Virus record (IMG/VR): IMGVR_UViG_2690316273_000023
Coordinates: 1 to 6,086 of that record
Strand: one strand, 5' to 3'
Source of the DNA: a virus
Taxonomy: Duplodnaviria > Heunggongvirae > Uroviricota > Caudoviricetes
DNA: 6,086 bases
The position numbers were made by a program, and so were the translations under genes. Positions 1 through 6,086 of this stretch are shown here, piece by piece. Numbering within the stretch: position 1 is the first letter of the stretch; the number at the start of each line of letters is the position of its first letter. The notes below the pieces were generated by a model. The model was not told the DNA's origin. It searched no databases and saw only the letters and a list, made by a program, of their open reading frames with translations.

Positions 1-474
1 ATGTACAGTCCGGTACAAATAGCCAATAAATTCATAACGTTGGGAAACCAACATCATAATCCTCTGACCCACATGCAACTTCAGAAGCTTACTTATATTG
101 CCCATGGTTACTATTTAGCATTAACAGGTAAGCCTTTGCTCAATGAATGTGTCTCCGCGTGGAAGTACGGTCCAGTTATTCCTGGAATGTACGATGCTTT
201 CAAAGACTATGGGAATAAACCTGTTACGAATGTAGCAGTAGCTCCTTTTGGTGGCATCGTTACTATGGATCCGCAAGCAGAGAGCATTATAGGGGCTGTT
301 TATAAGTTTTACGGCTCGAAAAATGGAATTGAGTTATCAACTCTAACTCATATGCCAGGTACGCCTTGGTCACAAGCTTATAATGGTATTGGCTCGTCGA
401 TCATCTCAAATGATGCGATCAAGGCTTATTATCATGATTTATTGAATAACCGACAGCAATGTCAGGGCCTCTGA
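1..474 (+). CDS. Panacea-domain (DUF4065) protein, PanA/SocA/GepA-like putative antitoxin
   Basis: 157-aa ORF from the ORF track. N-terminal half (YSPVQIANKFI...LTHMQLQKLTYIAHGYYLALTGKPLLNECVSAWKYGPVIPGMYDAF) matches my recollection of the conserved DUF4065/Panacea core (LQKLLY..G..L...G.PLF.E...AW.YGPV.P..Y). The ATG sits at window position 1, so RBS and promoter cannot be seen and the true start is unverified. GC visibly lower than the rest of the window. Confidence 0.72.
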   Translation: MYSPVQIANKFITLGNQHHNPLTHMQLQKLTYIAHGYYLALTGKPLLNECVSAWKYGPVIPGMYDAFKDYGNKPVTNVAVAPFGGIVTMDPQAESIIGAVYKFYGSKNGIELSTLTHMPGTPWSQAYNGIGSSIISNDAIKAYYHDLLNNRQQCQGL

Positions 475-496
475 AAAAGTAATATTCAGGGATGAC

Positions 497-1045
497 ATGT
501 CTCATAATTCAGATATCTATAAACTGATCGGAGCGGCCGCAGGTGTTGAAAATGGTCGCTCTGAAGCATCCTTAAACTCTACTGACAGTCAAGAGCAGGC
601 TTTTGAATCCGCATTTGAGCCGTCTAATCATGAGCGCGATGATGATTCTTCTTCAGAAAATAAGGCTATTCTGGAGGCAGAAGAGTTTGGTTCTAATACT
701 GGTGCATTGCATGAGTTTATGCAGCAGAACAGAATGGACAGTCTTCAAGCTCAGCTTGATATGCTCAAGTCACAAGTACGGGATAAGATAGCTGACGCAA
801 CTGGTAAAGAAATAGACAATGAGCTTCGGACAAAAATGGCCTCATTCACGGTTTGGTTTATGTCGTGTTGGTGCTTATTTGTAGCCGGAATGTTTGTATC
901 ATTTCTTATTGCTCATGAAGGAAAGCCGCCAGTTGAAGCAATCGTTGCATTACTGGGAACAAGTACAATTAGTATTGTTGGTTTGGTTGGCTTCGTTGTT
1001 AGTGGATTGTTCAAATCTAGAAAAGATGGCGATAAAGAAAAATAA
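497..1045 (+). CDS. Membrane protein with acidic N-terminal region and two C-terminal TM helices; candidate PanA-associated toxin/effector
   Basis: 182-aa ORF starting 22 bp after the upstream stop, with a purine-rich AGGGA 4-5 nt before the ATG. N-terminal ~110 aa are acidic, Ser/Glu-rich and low-complexity with a short predicted coiled segment (QQNRMDSLQAQLDMLKSQVRDKI). The C-terminus has two hydrophobic stretches (FTVWFMSCWCLFVAGMFVSFLIA and AIVALLGTSTISIVGLVGFVVSGLF) and a basic tail (KSRKDGDKEK). No family recognised with certainty; DUF2335-like is possible. Confidence 0.6.
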   Translation: MSHNSDIYKLIGAAAGVENGRSEASLNSTDSQEQAFESAFEPSNHERDDDSSSENKAILEAEEFGSNTGALHEFMQQNRMDSLQAQLDMLKSQVRDKIADATGKEIDNELRTKMASFTVWFMSCWCLFVAGMFVSFLIAHEGKPPVEAIVALLGTSTISIVGLVGFVVSGLFKSRKDGDKEK

Positions 1046-1066
1046 CCCGTATATACACGGGTTATT
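1031..1066 (-). terminator. Intrinsic terminator at the end of the minus-strand operon, possibly bidirectional
   Basis: Perfect 10-bp inverted repeat aataacccgt (1041-1050) / acgggttatt (1057-1066) with a 6-nt loop. On the minus-strand transcript it is followed immediately by UUUCUUUAUC (complement of 1031-1040) and lies 13 nt downstream of the stop of the 1079-1351 gene. The plus-strand stop TAA (1043-1045) lies inside the left arm; on the plus strand the T-rich stretch only begins ~20 nt after the stem. Confidence 0.6.
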
Positions 1067-1078
1067 CATGGTCTTAGT

Positions 1079-1351
1079 TTAGTTATATTTTTGTTTATCC
1101 GTTCTGACCTTTTCCCACTCAGCTCGTCCTTCTTCTCGTCTTTTGTCTATGTATTCCGCAAGATCCTGAATATTGATGCAACGTTTTGCTTTTTGTGATG
1201 TGCCGATGCGATATGTTGGAACGGGCAACTTACAAGCGTTTGCTTTTGCTTCTGCCGTGGCTGGACTCATGCCAAAGTACTTTTGGCTAACTGCTGAGAG
1301 TTCAATGTTAGGGGTATTGAATTCAGCCATCAGTAAAAACAAGGTGTTCAT
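1079..1351 (-). CDS. PrtN-family / excisionase-like small DNA-binding protein
   Basis: The ORF-track start at 1378 is a GTG with no SD. The internal ATG at 1351 is preceded by GGAG with a 6-nt spacer and gives a 90-aa protein MNTLFLLMAEF...QDLAEYIDKRR, which matches my recollection of the PrtN / excisionase-like family. It is the last gene of the operon, followed by the terminator. Confidence 0.6.
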   Translation of the reverse strand: MNTLFLLMAEFNTPNIELSAVSQKYFGMSPATAEAKANACKLPVPTYRIGTSQKAKRCINIQDLAEYIDKRREEGRAEWEKVRTDKQKYN

Positions 1352-1387
1352 AATTTTCTCCATCAAAACCGGCTGCACCCGGAAAAA

Positions 1388-1960
1388 TCATAATTCTGTG
1401 CTGGTGGCAGGAATTAATTTCTGCCAGATAGCTGAAACATATTTTGCCTGATGACGAGCATCAGCCAGGGCGTTGTGCCGTTCGCCATCGAAAGGCATGT
1501 CCATTTTGGGGTCGAATCCGATGGAACGCCCAAGCGTAACGATCGTGCGTACATCGTGATCATTCCAGTACGCCCATGGGCAGATTTGTCCTGCTCGTTC
1601 ATAAGCTCCGCGTAAAATTACGTTGTCGAAGGTGGCCCCGTTACCCCAAACTTTTAAATATTTCGTATTGCCTGCGTGCCGATTAATGAAATGGCTCAGT
1701 TCAGAGAGTGCATCGCTGATCGACAAAGTATCATCAATACAGATTGCAGCTCGTGCTTCAGGGCTTTGTTTCAACCACCACAGGATGGTATCGCCGTCAG
1801 GTGTGGCCCCTTGCTCCATAGCACTGTCCAGGCTGACAACCGTATAGAATGCTTGTCCGATGTCTCCGGTTTCTGGAGTGAAGAACACCGCGCCAATGGA
1901 AACGAACGGTGCATCCTTATTTTTCCCCATCGTCTCAAGGTCGATCATTAAGTTGTTCAT
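1388..1960 (-). CDS. DEDDh-type 3'-5' exonuclease (DnaQ-like fold, phage Rv2179c-like exonuclease family)
   Basis: Motifs read directly from the translation: Exo I (MIDLETMG), Exo II (WGNGATFDNVIL) and Exo III (HNALADARHQAKY, H-x4-D). ATG at 1960 preceded by GAGGTG; the ORF-track start at 1963 is a GTG. Start overlaps the upstream gene's stop as TGATG. Confidence 0.8.
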   Translation of the reverse strand: MNNLMIDLETMGKNKDAPFVSIGAVFFTPETGDIGQAFYTVVSLDSAMEQGATPDGDTILWWLKQSPEARAAICIDDTLSISDALSELSHFINRHAGNTKYLKVWGNGATFDNVILRGAYERAGQICPWAYWNDHDVRTIVTLGRSIGFDPKMDMPFDGERHNALADARHQAKYVSAIWQKLIPATSTEL

Positions 1961-2586
1961 CACTTCACCTCATGCGGCGGTTCCGGTAGCGGCATCCAGT
2001 GTGATGGTATCCACGACGCACCAGGTATTACCCACCCATCATTAGCGTCAGGATGCCCCGGGATGTAAGTCGCCCATTTCATTCGCCAGTCACCTTTCCT
2101 GTCAAACTCCCTGGCAACAAGAACGGCTGTTTTGCTATCCGGCATTCGCTCACTACAGCTTATCCAACCGCCCGGAATTACCGGAGAGTTGCCATTTACA
2201 TCGAAGTTTGGCTCTGCGTCCTGAACTAGGAGGATGTAACCATTCTTGGCTGTATCAAGTTCTAACGCCTCGGTGACGGTACCGAAATAGCGATTACCTA
2301 AATCAGCATCACAAGTGCTTACATCAATGGAAACTTCCATCCCTTCGATTAATTCTGGCAAGTTGTAAGTTTGGCTTACAGGCTCTGCTTCCAGTGATGC
2401 CAGTGCAATTCGTGCCAGCTCACGCACAACTTCAGGGGGCGCGTAACGGTCATTCAGGTCATCCCACAGGCGTAGCATGTTATCGCTACCAGGGTGAACA
2501 TCCTCGTTAGTTCCGGCAAGCGCACTAATAACCTCATCGGCTGCTTCAATAATTTTCTGTGCCTGTTCTCTGGTAATAGTGGTCAT
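1960..2586 (-). CDS. DUF551-domain phage protein
   Basis: 208-aa ORF. C-terminal region (GGWISCSERMPDSKTAVLV...GWVIPGASWIPSHWMPLPEPP) carries the W-rich signature ending in WMPLPEPP that I recall for DUF551. N-terminal MTTITREQ...ELARIALASLEAEP module is shared with the 2796-3191 gene. Confidence 0.72.
   Translation of the reverse strand: MTTITREQAQKIIEAADEVISALAGTNEDVHPGSDNMLRLWDDLNDRYAPPEVVRELARIALASLEAEPVSQTYNLPELIEGMEVSIDVSTCDADLGNRYFGTVTEALELDTAKNGYILLVQDAEPNFDVNGNSPVIPGGWISCSERMPDSKTAVLVAREFDRKGDWRMKWATYIPGHPDANDGWVIPGASWIPSHWMPLPEPPHEVK
2389..2428. repeat. Dispersed direct repeat, copy 1 (encodes the ELARIALASLE motif)
   Basis: ttccagtgatgccagtgcaattcgtgccagctc at ~2391-2423 matches ttccagcgatgccagagcaattcgtgccagttc at ~3059-3091, 30 of 33 positions identical. 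Both copies lie in the same frame of adjacent minus-strand genes. Confidence 0.7.
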
Positions 2587-2596
2587 TTGTTATGCC

Positions 2597-2794
2597 TCAA
2601 TACACGAAATCTGTTTTAAATTCATGGTTACATTCTGGACAGCATGTTTCGTAACCTTTTATTTCTTCACATGCCTGTTTAGCTCCAGAAAACTCCCAGA
2701 AATCAGCGTCACAAAGCAGATCGAAATTGTGACCGCATTTTGGGCATTCGGTATCAAGTGACAGATTCCAGTAAGCAGTGGTGTTTTTATCCAT
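2597..2794 (-). CDS. Small zinc-ribbon protein (CxxC...CCxxC)
   Basis: 65-aa product MDKNTTAYWNLSLDTECPKCGH...ETCCPECNHEFKTDFVY with two Cys pairs. ATG at 2794 is preceded by AAGGAG with a 6-nt spacer, and the upstream gene's stop is at 2796-2798; the ORF-track start at 2827 lacks an SD and would overlap the upstream gene. Confidence 0.55.
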   Translation of the reverse strand: MDKNTTAYWNLSLDTECPKCGHNFDLLCDADFWEFSGAKQACEEIKGYETCCPECNHEFKTDFVY

Positions 2795-2795
2795 A

Positions 2796-3191
2796 TCAGT
2801 CTCCTTTCCCCTGAAGCATAGCGGCACGGCAGGCGTTCCAGCCTCTCACCTCTGCAATAGCGGCAACAGCATCAACCGCGTACATACTAAGAGGATTAGG
2901 CATTGGTTTTTCTTCCGGTACTACTTGCGCTGGAGGGGCGGCGTAAATGCCCTCTATCACTAAATGTTTGCGCTCAAAATCATCTGGCTCTCGATGATAT
3001 ACGTAACTCCAATCACCAAGGTTATCATTGCGCCTGCAACGGAAACCTATCGGCTCGACTTCCAGCGATGCCAGAGCAATTCGTGCCAGTTCTTCCGCTT
3101 CTTCTGCTGGCAGTACAACGTTGCTACCCGGTCCGTATGTTTCGCGCCACTGCTTGATTGTCAGCAGTCGCTCTTTGGTAATAGTGGTCAT
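2796..3191 (-). CDS. Hypothetical phage protein sharing an N-terminal module with the DUF551 protein
   Basis: 131-aa ORF MTTITKERLL...EELARIALASLEVEP...; AAGGTG 8 nt upstream of the ATG. The shared N-terminus is visible at the DNA level (see repeat features). C-terminal part unrecognised. Confidence 0.6.
   Translation of the reverse strand: MTTITKERLLTIKQWRETYGPGSNVVLPAEEAEELARIALASLEVEPIGFRCRRNDNLGDWSYVYHREPDDFERKHLVIEGIYAAPPAQVVPEEKPMPNPLSMYAVDAVAAIAEVRGWNACRAAMLQGKGD
3055..3097. repeat. Dispersed direct repeat, copy 2 (encodes the ELARIALASLE motif)
   Basis: Partner of the 2389-2428 copy. A second shared block covers the two start regions: ctggtaatagtggtcat at 2570-2586 and ttggtaatagtggtcat at 3175-3191. 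Confidence 0.7.
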
Positions 3192-3193
3192 AG

Positions 3194-3385
3194 CTATTTC
3201 ACCTTAATCTCAACATTTCGCAGCTTTAGCTCTACTGGCAGGTCTGACTTTCCGGTTAATGCTAATGCGAGATTTTCTGGAGTAATGAGAGCAGTTATTG
3301 TTTTCCCCCTCGCCAGACGAATAATCATTCGTATCTCGCAATCGTCACATGCTCCCGGTCGAACAATTGAGATTTGTCCGTTCAT
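3194..3385 (-). CDS. Small hypothetical phage protein (63 aa)
   Basis: Internal ATG at 3385 (MNGQISIVRPGACDDCEIRMIIRLARGK...) is preceded by AAGGAG and lies 1 nt after the upstream gene's TGA (3387-3389). The longer ORF-track version (3194..3547) would overlap the upstream Ea22-like gene by ~160 nt and is rejected. Confidence 0.5.
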   Translation of the reverse strand: MNGQISIVRPGACDDCEIRMIIRLARGKTITALITPENLALALTGKSDLPVELKLRNVEIKVK

Positions 3386-3386
3386 C

Positions 3387-4094
3387 TCACTCTCCTTTGA
3401 TGCGAATGCCAGCGGCGCGCTCGGCTTCACTTTGTTCCCAAAACCACTTGTGAAGCGCCATAAGCTTTTCGTCAATCGGTGCATATTTGCGATTAAAGTA
3501 GGCCTGAGCATCTTTCTCAGATTCGTCCGGTAATTCGCCAGGGCCAAACAGTGTGTTATAAATCCATGCTAGTCCGCTCTTAGCGTCGCCAGTTGCCTGC
3601 CATTCGATAATGGCAGCCTGCATGACCAGAATGTTTTTCCCGATTAATAGGTCCAGTTCTTTGTACCGGTTGCGGATGTATGCATTCTCGCTTTGTAATT
3701 TTGCGTTGCGCTTTTCTGAGGCTTCAAGTAACGCCTGCTTATCGCGTAGCGCTTCTTCCAGTTCAGCAACATGGCACTCACTATCAATAAGGTTGTTCTC
3801 TGCGGCTTCCAGCTCAACACGCAGCTTCCCTACCGTTAGCGCAATATCCTCGTTCTCCTGGTCACGGCTTTTGATGTATTGCTGGTTTCTTTCCCGTTCA
3901 TCCAGTAGTGCCAGCACGGTTTCTGGTCCGGCCAGAAATTTGAAGGCGTTGAGCGCATCAATATCCACACCGTAATCTTTAAGTTCCTGTTCACTTAACA
4001 AATCATCATCAGCTGGCAACATTAACAGGCGTTCCATTGCTGGAATTGCACGTTCCGCCGCCTCACGCAGTGCCTGATAGTCAATCTTGCTCAC
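3387..4094 (-). CDS. Ead/Ea22-like coiled-coil protein
   Basis: 235-aa ORF MSKIDYQALREAAERAIPAMERLL... with a long heptad-like Glu/Leu/Ala-rich central region (ELEAAENNL...ELEEALRDKQALLEASEKRNAKLQSENAYIRNRYKELD). Matches my recollection of Ea22-like proteins of lambdoid prophages. Start overlaps the upstream stop as ATGA. Confidence 0.68.
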   Translation of the reverse strand: MSKIDYQALREAAERAIPAMERLLMLPADDDLLSEQELKDYGVDIDALNAFKFLAGPETVLALLDERERNQQYIKSRDQENEDIALTVGKLRVELEAAENNLIDSECHVAELEEALRDKQALLEASEKRNAKLQSENAYIRNRYKELDLLIGKNILVMQAAIIEWQATGDAKSGLAWIYNTLFGPGELPDESEKDAQAYFNRKYAPIDEKLMALHKWFWEQSEAERAAGIRIKGE

Positions 4095-4780
4095 TGGTTG
4101 CCTCCTTTTCGAAGCTGGGCGGCGATATCTTCGAGAACGCCATCAGAGAATGAGCGGTCAAAATCGCCTTCCGGCGCATTAGCCATAAACTCAGTAGAGG
4201 TAAGAATCATCCGGGCAATATCCGCGGCGTTCTTCGCAGTATCATCAATAAAACCAGCTTCCCAGGCAGCCAGCATTCTGTTCGCCACAAAATAAGCGCC
4301 TTCCTTGCGTGCTTCAGTCTTCACTTCAGCCAGAAAAGCATCGGTGGCTGGGGTGTCGATATTAGGCAGAAGCGCATAATCGCAAATCGTATCGATCGCA
4401 GGATCACAACAGTCATCCTCGTTGCGTGGTCGTTCGCCAACCTTCGTTGACGATTGCATGATGATTCCCCAGCAAATACTATCGACCTCTTCGCTCCATC
4501 CATCGCAAGCATCACCGCGATAGTCGTCAATTGCAGCCTCAGCCGATTCGATAGCTTCCTCAGCAGTTTTGTGCCATTCGAAATTATGCTCAGAGCCATA
4601 TGAGAAATATGAATGTCCCGCCTTCAGCCCCGCATTCTCCGCCGCCAGCGCCGCGCACTTGGCCTCCGCTTCAGCAAATTTACGCACCAGATATTCAGCA
4701 TTTGTTTCGTTCACTTTCAGATCTCGCGGTACACATTTCCCGCGAAGAAACCCTTCCATTTCGAAAACATTCATGCGCAT
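4091..4780 (-). CDS. Ead/Ea22-like family protein (second, divergent copy)
   Basis: 229-aa ORF with N-terminal coiled-coil segment (NAEYLVRKFAEAEAKCAALAAENAGLK) followed by an acidic, Cys/Trp-containing domain. GGAG 8 nt upstream of the ATG at 4780. Family call is from recall and only moderate. Confidence 0.55.
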   Translation of the reverse strand: MRMNVFEMEGFLRGKCVPRDLKVNETNAEYLVRKFAEAEAKCAALAAENAGLKAGHSYFSYGSEHNFEWHKTAEEAIESAEAAIDDYRGDACDGWSEEVDSICWGIIMQSSTKVGERPRNEDDCCDPAIDTICDYALLPNIDTPATDAFLAEVKTEARKEGAYFVANRMLAAWEAGFIDDTAKNAADIARMILTSTEFMANAPEGDFDRSFSDGVLEDIAAQLRKGGNQ

Positions 4781-5307
4781 TTGCGTAACTCCGATAACTC
4801 GTTAAAACGTTCCATAAACATCCCGTAGGCATGGCCTGGTGACAGTGGAATAACTTTGAACATCTCTGTTGCCGGGATGCCTTCCAGTACAGGCCAGAAA
4901 GAGCCATCATCAAGCCCGAGATCGCGGCGTTCGGTTGCCAGCATGATGAGATCGGCATATTTCACTGGCGTGCTCATAACAGGAGGTAACCCGTATTTCT
5001 CACGGATTACGGCGTCTATTTTTTCTTCCATCCGTTTATAGTCAGGAAGAAGTCGTTTCAGTGGCGCGGGGATGTCCTGGCAATATGCTTCTGTTGCATC
5101 ATGCATTAACGCTTCAAAAGCAAATTCCTGCGGCACCAGCTGGCTGCAAAGCACCGCATGCTGGGCGACACTGTAGAAGTGTGAAAGATGTCCTGCAAAG
5201 CGACAGATATTTGAAAGGGAAACTGCGATATCGTTAATCACGATGTCGTCTTTATTTATCTTGTCATAATAAAAATGCTTCCCGGAAAAAGTTTTAATAA
5301 ATGACAT
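4771..5307 (-). CDS. yfdR: HD-domain phosphohydrolase, YfdR-like (5'-deoxynucleotidase family)
   Basis: His...His-Asp metal-binding signature read from the translation (HLSHFYSVAQHAVLCS ... ALMHDATEAY). Internal ATG at 5307 (MSFIKTF...) is preceded by GGAG with a 6-nt spacer and gives 178 aa, which I recall is the length of E. coli K-12 CPS-53 YfdR. The ORF-track start at 5319 is a GTG lacking an SD. Confidence 0.78.
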   Translation of the reverse strand: MSFIKTFSGKHFYYDKINKDDIVINDIAVSLSNICRFAGHLSHFYSVAQHAVLCSQLVPQEFAFEALMHDATEAYCQDIPAPLKRLLPDYKRMEEKIDAVIREKYGLPPVMSTPVKYADLIMLATERRDLGLDDGSFWPVLEGIPATEMFKVIPLSPGHAYGMFMERFNELSELRKCA

Positions 5308-5401
5308 TTCGTTCTCCACTTTATATGCGCTGCACCGCGCTGAATTCTGCTAAAAGGAAGCTCTCACCATCCGGTGATTATTGAGTTAATTACGTTTCCA
5401 T

Positions 5402-5423
5402 AAATGCCCCCGCAGGGGCATTT
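5402..5423 (-). promoter_or_regulatory. GC-rich stem-loop in the yfdQ-like/yfdR-like intergenic region
   Basis: aaatgcccc (5402-5410) / cgca loop / ggggcattt (5415-5423): 9-bp perfect stem with a tetraloop, 13 nt downstream of the yfdQ-like stop on the minus strand. No U-tract follows on either strand. Confidence 0.4.
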
Positions 5424-5435
5424 GCAGTAATGAAA

Positions 5436-6086
5436 TCAGGCGGTGAAAGTACCAATAAAGGTTTCTACTTTGCTGTCTTTGAATTTCTCAACAAGCAGAT
5501 CACGAAATTCGTTAGCCATTTCTTCCTGCATCGCTTCCAGCTGAATAATGCGCAGAACCAGTACAGGACGATCGCCAGTGATAATTCTGAGGCGTAATTT
5601 AAACGGACGTTCTTTCAGGCCTTCAAACGGAACGCATTTAAATTCAAATGCCACTGGCATAATGTCTTTGGTTTTCGCTTCGACAGACTCCATCAGGGAG
5701 CGTTTGCCGCTGAAGTCATTGTCTTCAAAATCAGCGGTCTGGTTTGCTTCAATTGTGATTTTACGGACTGCAGCAGCCGCTTTGGTTGCCTGAATGGTGT
5801 CACCATTAGCATCAAAGCCCACAAGGTAGTCGGCCCAGTCTTCAATCCATTCTGCCAGTGACTTCTGGGAGTTACGCTCGCCATTAACAGACAACAGAGC
5901 AGAAAACGGTGCTGTCTTTTTCAGTTTGAGGGTGGCGGTGTTATCTGCGTGACCTGGTTCATCAATAGTACCCAGGTTAAGCACACTGACGGCTCGCATA
6001 TTATCGGCATCGATAAAGCAGCGGGTGCCTTCATCTGCAAGATCTTTAGAATAACGGGTAAAGTCATCGATGCTGGCAGTGGAAAG
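5436..6086 (-). CDS. yfdQ: DUF2303-family protein, YfdQ-like; partial, 5' end lies beyond the right window edge
   Basis: I translated the minus-strand frame upstream of the ORF-track Met at 5999 and it stays open to position 6086 (...[35 protein letters not shown]...), so the gene is truncated by the window. The position immediately upstream of the yfdR-like gene matches the yfdQ-yfdR order I recall for CPS-53. Family assignment is by synteny and recall, not by a motif I can verify. Confidence 0.55.

Follow-up and report, generated by a model that had tools for sequence, protein, structure and literature searches.

The window analyzed here, the entire 6,086-nucleotide stretch of viral DNA, opens with two genes on the plus strand. 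The first (ORF1, panA; positions 1-474) encodes a 157-residue Panacea-domain antitoxin that carries no additional N-terminal domain. An earlier note, made from the sequence alone, had recognized the core of the Panacea/DUF4065 domain in this protein, and a profile search bore this out: the Pfam family PF13274 SocA_Panacea (formerly DUF4065) was matched over profile positions 1-112 of 113 with 66.3 bits (E = 5.9e-18), well above the gathering cut-off of 25.7 bits. The GPV signature motif of the family, reported to be important for the Panacea domain (PMC8832971), is present as G57-P58-V59, and the PHROGs family phrog_1281 was also matched (E = 6.6e-49). A further match, to the NCBIfam model NF047745 "SocA family antitoxin," was partial (E = 1e-27) and, at 97 bits, did not reach the equivalog cut-off of 190 bits.

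The second gene (ORF2, panT; positions 497-1045, plus strand) encodes a membrane toxin of 182 residues. These coordinates confirm that it lies 22 bp downstream of panA on the same strand, as had been noted, and the spacer (positions 475-496, plus strand; AAAAGTAATATTCAGGGATGAC) contains a Shine-Dalgarno-like AGGGA at 488-492, 4 nt ahead of the panT ATG. Across 14 related loci, the gap between the two genes is 21-22 bp. The N-terminal part of PanT is acidic and variable; it is followed by a conserved stretch with helix propensity (residues ∼60-115) and by two predicted C-terminal transmembrane segments. Residues 1-115 contain 23 acidic (Asp + Glu) versus 11 basic (Lys + Arg) residues, for a net charge of −12. 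The membrane segments were called from hydropathy alone by the Kyte-Doolittle method with a 19-residue window and a threshold of 1.6, and the two hydrophobic stretches, at residues ∼115-140 and ∼145-172, both gave mean values of >1.6. The charge count and the two hydrophobic segments thus agree with the acidic N terminus and pair of C-terminal helices previously ascribed to this protein. Searches of ORF2 against Pfam yielded no family above any cut-off and only sub-threshold matches (DUF6463, DUF2207_C, and others); DUF2335, which had been put forward as a possible family for ORF2, was absent from these results. By comparison with PHROGs, phrog_13343 ("unknown function") was matched end to end (E = 5.1e-112). 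Alignment of PanT with a 64%-identical relative revealed that conservation starts near residue 60, with residues 20-55 being variable and including a 10-residue difference in length.

The two genes differ in composition from the DNA that follows, with a GC content of 41.1% in positions 1-1045 versus 47.9% in positions 1079-6086, in line with the lower GC content that the earlier note had attributed to the pair. They are also convergent with their neighbors, as that note had stated: an excisionase-like gene occupies positions 1079-1378 on the minus strand (PrtN family PF11112, E = 3.9e-23; phrog_1300 "excisionase," E = 6.2e-40), and all further genes in the window likewise lie on the minus strand. 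The excisionase-like gene is context and stands outside the panAT module. Its start is ambiguous, in that the longest reading frame runs from a GTG at 1378 and encodes 99 residues, RefSeq annotates 273 nt (window positions 1079-1351), and the record for phage 1720a-02 gives 285 nt. Between the converging genes, an inverted repeat was detected at positions 1040-1067 (12 pairs, a loop of 4, core CCCGTATATACACGGG; called on the minus strand at positions 7067-7040 of L003, a related locus that extends beyond the window). This repeat overlaps the stop codon of panT and is located 12 nt past that of the excisionase-like gene. It may act as a shared two-way terminator for panT and the excisionase-like gene, a putative assignment made by consensus match only.

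The remaining genes of the window form a typical lambdoid early-left set, encoding a Rv2179c-like 3′-5′ exonuclease, a DUF551 protein, an Ead/Ea22-like protein, a YfdR-like HD-domain phosphohydrolase, and YfdQ, all on the minus strand. Two reading frames within this set (1960-2586 and 2796-3191, both minus strand) begin almost identically (MTTIT.E...) and have the internal stretch ELARIALASLE in common. Each gave a match to phrog_60, but the C-terminal parts differ, with DUF551 present in one of them; an N-terminal module looks to have been duplicated or recombined here. The YfdQ-family gene (5436-6086, minus strand) contains no in-frame stop codon from position 5999 to the end of the window, and the RefSeq length of this gene is 825 nt. 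It therefore extends past the right edge, and the 187-residue reading frame seen here results from truncation by the window. The early-left region as a whole (1100-6086) is mosaic. Although 4282 of 5426 complete E. coli genomes match parts of the window, none of them contains 80% of it at a single location, and phage 1720a-02 is identical only over panAT and the xis end.

Given that the first base of the window is the A of the panA ATG, the ribosome-binding site and promoter of panA must lie outside the window. Many viral contigs in IMG/VR begin at this same base, so the window edge looks like a cut made at a gene boundary or by a prophage caller and not like a biological edge. In L003, a GGAGG ribosome-binding site is found upstream of panA at positions 5988-5996. 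A sequence with a perfect σ70 consensus (12 of 12 positions; TTGACA-16-TATAAT) occupies positions 5816-5843 of the same locus, ending 157 nt before the panA ATG. An exact match to this 28-nt promoter-like sequence was present in the 14 related loci that were fetched, and the total number of promoter-like sites in the panA upstream region was no greater than in shuffled sequence. The σ70 site is a candidate promoter by virtue of its match to the consensus.

Comparison of window positions 1-1100 with known genomes revealed 100% identity to Escherichia phage 1720a-02 (KF030445) and 96% identity to phages PhiR47_1 and phiSTEC1575-Stx2k. Identity to the chromosome of E. coli STEC1588 was 99.9%, the single difference being a silent one at window position 393. 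In the RefSeq annotation of STEC1588, the two coding sequences correspond to WP_000287252.1 ("Panacea domain-containing protein") and WP_000019185.1 ("hypothetical protein"), and the translations of ORF1 and ORF2, respectively, are residue-for-residue identical to these proteins. Both appear in Table 1 of Kurata et al. 2022 (PNAS 119:e2102212119, PMC8832971), where WP_000287252.1 is PanA(Esc. col.) and WP_000019185.1 is PanT(Esc. col.), the source of the pair is E. coli STEC O31, and the mode of action of the toxin is given as "Membrane." The accompanying dataset row reads "noNTD, T3, A|T, 22, TA," in which the gap of 22 is that of the window. Every feature of PanAT systems and of cluster T3 toxins that can be examined in sequence was found in the window. 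In addition, in the GenBank record of phage PhiR47_1 (2025), the homologous genes carry the labels "PanA antitoxin" and "PanT toxin." Window positions 1-1045 thus almost certainly encode the published two-gene toxin-antitoxin module PanAT(Esc. col.), which is located at the ends of lambdoid E. coli prophages, including Stx2 phages. The exact proteins of the module have already been described, and ORF2, which the earlier note had thought might be an undescribed partner, is the described toxin PanT(Esc. col.) of cluster T3.

Functional data for the identical proteins have been published (PMC8832971). Expression of PanT(Esc. col.) alone from an arabinose promoter halts the growth of E. coli, and growth is rescued by the cognate PanA, such that the pair was validated on both counts applied in that study, toxicity of the toxin and rescue by its cognate antitoxin. 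Metabolic labeling with [35S]methionine, [3H]uridine, and [3H]thymidine showed that translation, transcription, and replication are shut down together, in a manner resembling the effect of HokB or CCCP. By microscopy, the DiSC3(5) signal was lost and SYTOX Green entered the cells, demonstrating that the inner membrane was both depolarized and permeabilized, and the authors interpreted this effect as depolarization via large pores (PMC8832971). In a 10 × 10 cross-neutralization matrix, protection was conferred by the cognate PanA only, and an evolved Vibrio PanA (T36M Q131L) gave partial protection against PanT(Esc. col.) (PMC8832971). The reading of the two genes as a Panacea antitoxin and a membrane-acting toxin, advanced in the earlier note as a candidate, can be stated more firmly than that, because these exact proteins have already been validated experimentally as a pair (PMC8832971).

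The manner of neutralization bears on a different account of PanA, in which the protein would resemble the type VI antitoxin SocA and serve as an adaptor that delivers the toxin to a protease, instead of inhibiting it by binding. Such a role would accord with the SocA_Panacea domain of PanA and with the partial match to NF047745 described above. The score of that match lies far under the cut-off, however, the partner is a membrane protein and not a SocB-like toxin, and both ClpXP and Lon are dispensable for PanA neutralization, which persists in strains lacking these proteases (PMC8832971). The adaptor account is accordingly highly improbable, being largely refuted by the published neutralization data. 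Stable PanA-PanT complexes have been demonstrated by pull-down for five other PanAT pairs, the E. coli pair not being among them (PMC8832971); type II direct binding is thus an extrapolation for the pair in the window. For a pair from Bartonella, the toxin of which resembles PanT in composition, AlphaFold models together with two disruptive PanA substitutions, reported by the same group in a later PNAS paper, place the contacts at the N-terminal region of the toxin and a short helix that precedes the membrane segment. The onset of conservation near residue 60 of E. coli PanT is consistent with this contact-site model.

The distribution of the module was examined in complete genomes and viral contigs. 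Of 5426 complete E. coli genomes, 79 contained window positions 1-1100, in each case as one chromosomal copy. In complete phage genomes, panAT lies 300-400 bp from the end (1720a-02 at 100% and PhiR47_1 at 96% identity). In STEC1588, a partial "tRNA-dihydrouridine synthase" fragment is found ∼300 bp upstream of panA, and the prophage insertion site is dusA. The integrase gene is located at the opposite end of the linear phage record, and the order in the circular phage is therefore int, attP, panA, panT, and the convergent xis-like gene. The dataset row for the validated pair (GCF_000281775.1) carries the tag "NotPhage" (PMC8832971); despite this tag, the validated pair is clearly phage-borne.

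Linkage of the two genes was consistently observed. In 30 of the 30 IMG/VR loci for which upstream sequence was available, PanA was encoded directly upstream of PanT. A diverged pair, with 76% (PanA) and 64% (PanT) identity, was located at positions 436-1564 of locus L034, flanked by a DinI-like gene on one side and by serine invertase and tail-fiber genes on the other, and hence in a different phage backbone. The occurrence of a diverged pair in this setting implies that panA and panT travel together as a cassette. These observations also bear on the proposal that ORF2 encodes an ordinary membrane protein of the phage (for example, a holin, a superinfection-exclusion protein, or a structural protein) and lies beside a Panacea gene incidentally. 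The small size of ORF2, its two predicted transmembrane helices, and its phage origin are all compatible with a protein of this kind. The gene, however, is placed at the att/xis end, next to the early-left genes and a long way from any lysis cassette. PanA accompanies it in every locus with upstream sequence, the different backbone included, and rescue specific to the cognate PanA has been published. No holin family was matched by ORF2 in Pfam or PHROGs. A holin or other ordinary membrane protein is thus ruled out by the published neutralization data, and the probability left to this proposal is negligible.

Wider relatives were sought in a scan of one genome per species for PanT peptide patterns, in which 90 pattern matches were obtained and none was confirmed by tblastn. 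A scan for exact words reaches close relatives only and therefore says little about the wider T3 family.

Among close variants, the two genes behaved differently. Fourteen panAT variants from among loci L001-L033, which are related to each other, were compared with the window by plain counts of changes. In 11 of the 14, panA carried 2-10 nucleotide changes and zero amino acid changes. In the same 11 variants, panT carried 3-12 amino acid changes, and in three loci all 3 nucleotide changes in the gene were non-synonymous. Changes in PanT are concentrated in the first membrane helix (residues 120-134) and at positions 35, 37, 47, and 61. PanA is therefore nearly invariant among close variants, whereas PanT is changing.

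These data, together with the published experiments, can be accommodated by the following model. PanT inserts into the inner membrane, dissipates the membrane potential, and admits SYTOX Green, and the cognate PanA alone cancels the effect, as published. PanA would bind PanT directly, by extension from other PanAT pairs, and the likely site of contact would be the N-terminal region of PanT and the helix ahead of the transmembrane hairpin. This site is inferred by analogy with the Bartonella pair, the toxin of which has not been established by the authors as a homolog of the T3 toxins. The operon would be transcribed in the lysogen from its own strong σ70 promoter, ∼157 nt upstream of panA. The benefit to the phage would come from the death of cells in which PanA is lost or inactivated, and such killing would either defend abortively against other phages or help to retain the prophage.

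The first of these possible roles is abortive infection. Here, an invading phage would inactivate or deplete PanA, or the Panacea domain would sense the invader, and the PanT so freed would collapse the membrane ahead of completion of the invader's cycle. Several observations fit a prophage-encoded anti-phage defense of this type: the module is cargo of lower GC content at the end of a temperate phage genome, a consensus promoter of its own precedes it, and the cassette recurs in a phage backbone unrelated to this one. The group that described PanAT also favors the idea, proposed in the later PNAS paper, that Panacea may sense activating cues, and has found that another membrane-depolarizing toxin-antitoxin system, RosmerTA of Gordonia phage Kita, protects E. 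coli against phages. On the other side, a literature search returned no phage-challenge data for E. coli PanAT, no PADLOC model was matched by PanA or PanT (searches of PADLOC-DB v2 gave chance-level matches only, E = 0.014-0.02), and PanAT was not among the systems named in the searched text of an E. coli pangenome defense screen. In the portions of text searched, strain ECOR13 occurs both in that screen and in the SNIPE paper, and phage PhiR47.1 occurs in the SNIPE paper; Panacea and PanA occur in neither. Defense is accordingly put forward tentatively, as a role that is possible but has rather less than an even chance of being the main one.

The second role is that of an addiction device, whereby loss or excision of the prophage would deplete an unstable PanA, and the longer-lived PanT would then kill the cell, thereby stabilizing lysogeny. 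The position of panAT, 300-400 bp from the phage end or attachment site and adjoining an excisionase-like gene, is in keeping with such a function, as is its single-copy, exclusively chromosomal occurrence in the 79 of 5426 complete E. coli genomes. The authors of the published work, moreover, discuss addiction roles for PanAT modules near the recombination sites of mobile elements. The neutralization data, in which ClpXP and Lon are not required, give no hint of the short-lived antitoxin on which classical addiction depends, and an excised phage normally kills the cell regardless. An addiction device is for these reasons considered unlikely, though well short of implausible. As the main role of the module, defense is thus given around one chance in three and prophage retention around one in five; the two roles are not mutually exclusive.

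The literature was also searched for evidence bearing directly on either role. No test of phage defense, prophage stabilization, or the natural trigger was found for E. coli PanAT, and a search for later work on PanAT and Panacea returned nothing relevant beyond the two PNAS papers. In a "bully phage" preprint dealing with 1720a-02, the interference phenotype maps to Cro, and the panAT genes are unmentioned. A broader proposal is made with some reserve: PanAT, as cargo at the end of functional lambdoid phages, Stx2 phages included, might be expressed in the lysogen from its own consensus promoter for abortive defense or prophage retention, with the lone Panacea domain sensing the trigger. If this were true, selection on PanT, exerted for instance by inhibitors that phages encode, would account for a toxin that changes beside a constant PanA. 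The find itself adds little, being the rediscovery of a published and experimentally validated pair. The presence of an identical pair in the inducible Stx2 phage 1720a-02, however, means that an existing lysogen offers a direct test of a role in defense or in maintenance of the prophage.

The module may finally be compared with other systems that share one of its parts or its mode of action. The type VI system SocA-SocB of Caulobacter has an antitoxin that shares the Panacea domain with PanA. It differs in that SocA serves ClpXP as an adaptor and its toxin is not a membrane protein, whereas ClpXP and Lon are dispensable for PanA. HokB and RmrT, the toxin of RosmerTA from Gordonia phage Kita, resemble PanT in causing a rapid general shutdown through loss of membrane potential. 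The sequences of both are unrelated to that of PanT, Hok is controlled by antisense RNA, and the antitoxin of RmrT belongs to a different family. Anti-phage activity has been demonstrated for RosmerTA and not for E. coli PanAT. HokB served as a comparator in the original study (PMC8832971), and RmrT was compared with the Bartonella PanT in the later PNAS paper. The PanT-PanA pair of Bartonella apis/choladocola (cluster T12/node D11) likewise has a single-domain Panacea antitoxin, and its toxin shares with E. coli PanT a charged N-terminal region, C-terminal transmembrane helices, and the combination of depolarization with SYTOX Green uptake. Given that the similarity between T3 and T12 is too low for the clustering method of the authors, homology of the E. 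coli and Bartonella toxins can be regarded only as possible. By contrast, PanAT(Esc. col.) of STEC O31 has both proteins identical to those encoded in the window, with the antitoxin gene first and an equal gap of 22 bp, and no difference from the module in the window exists at the protein level.
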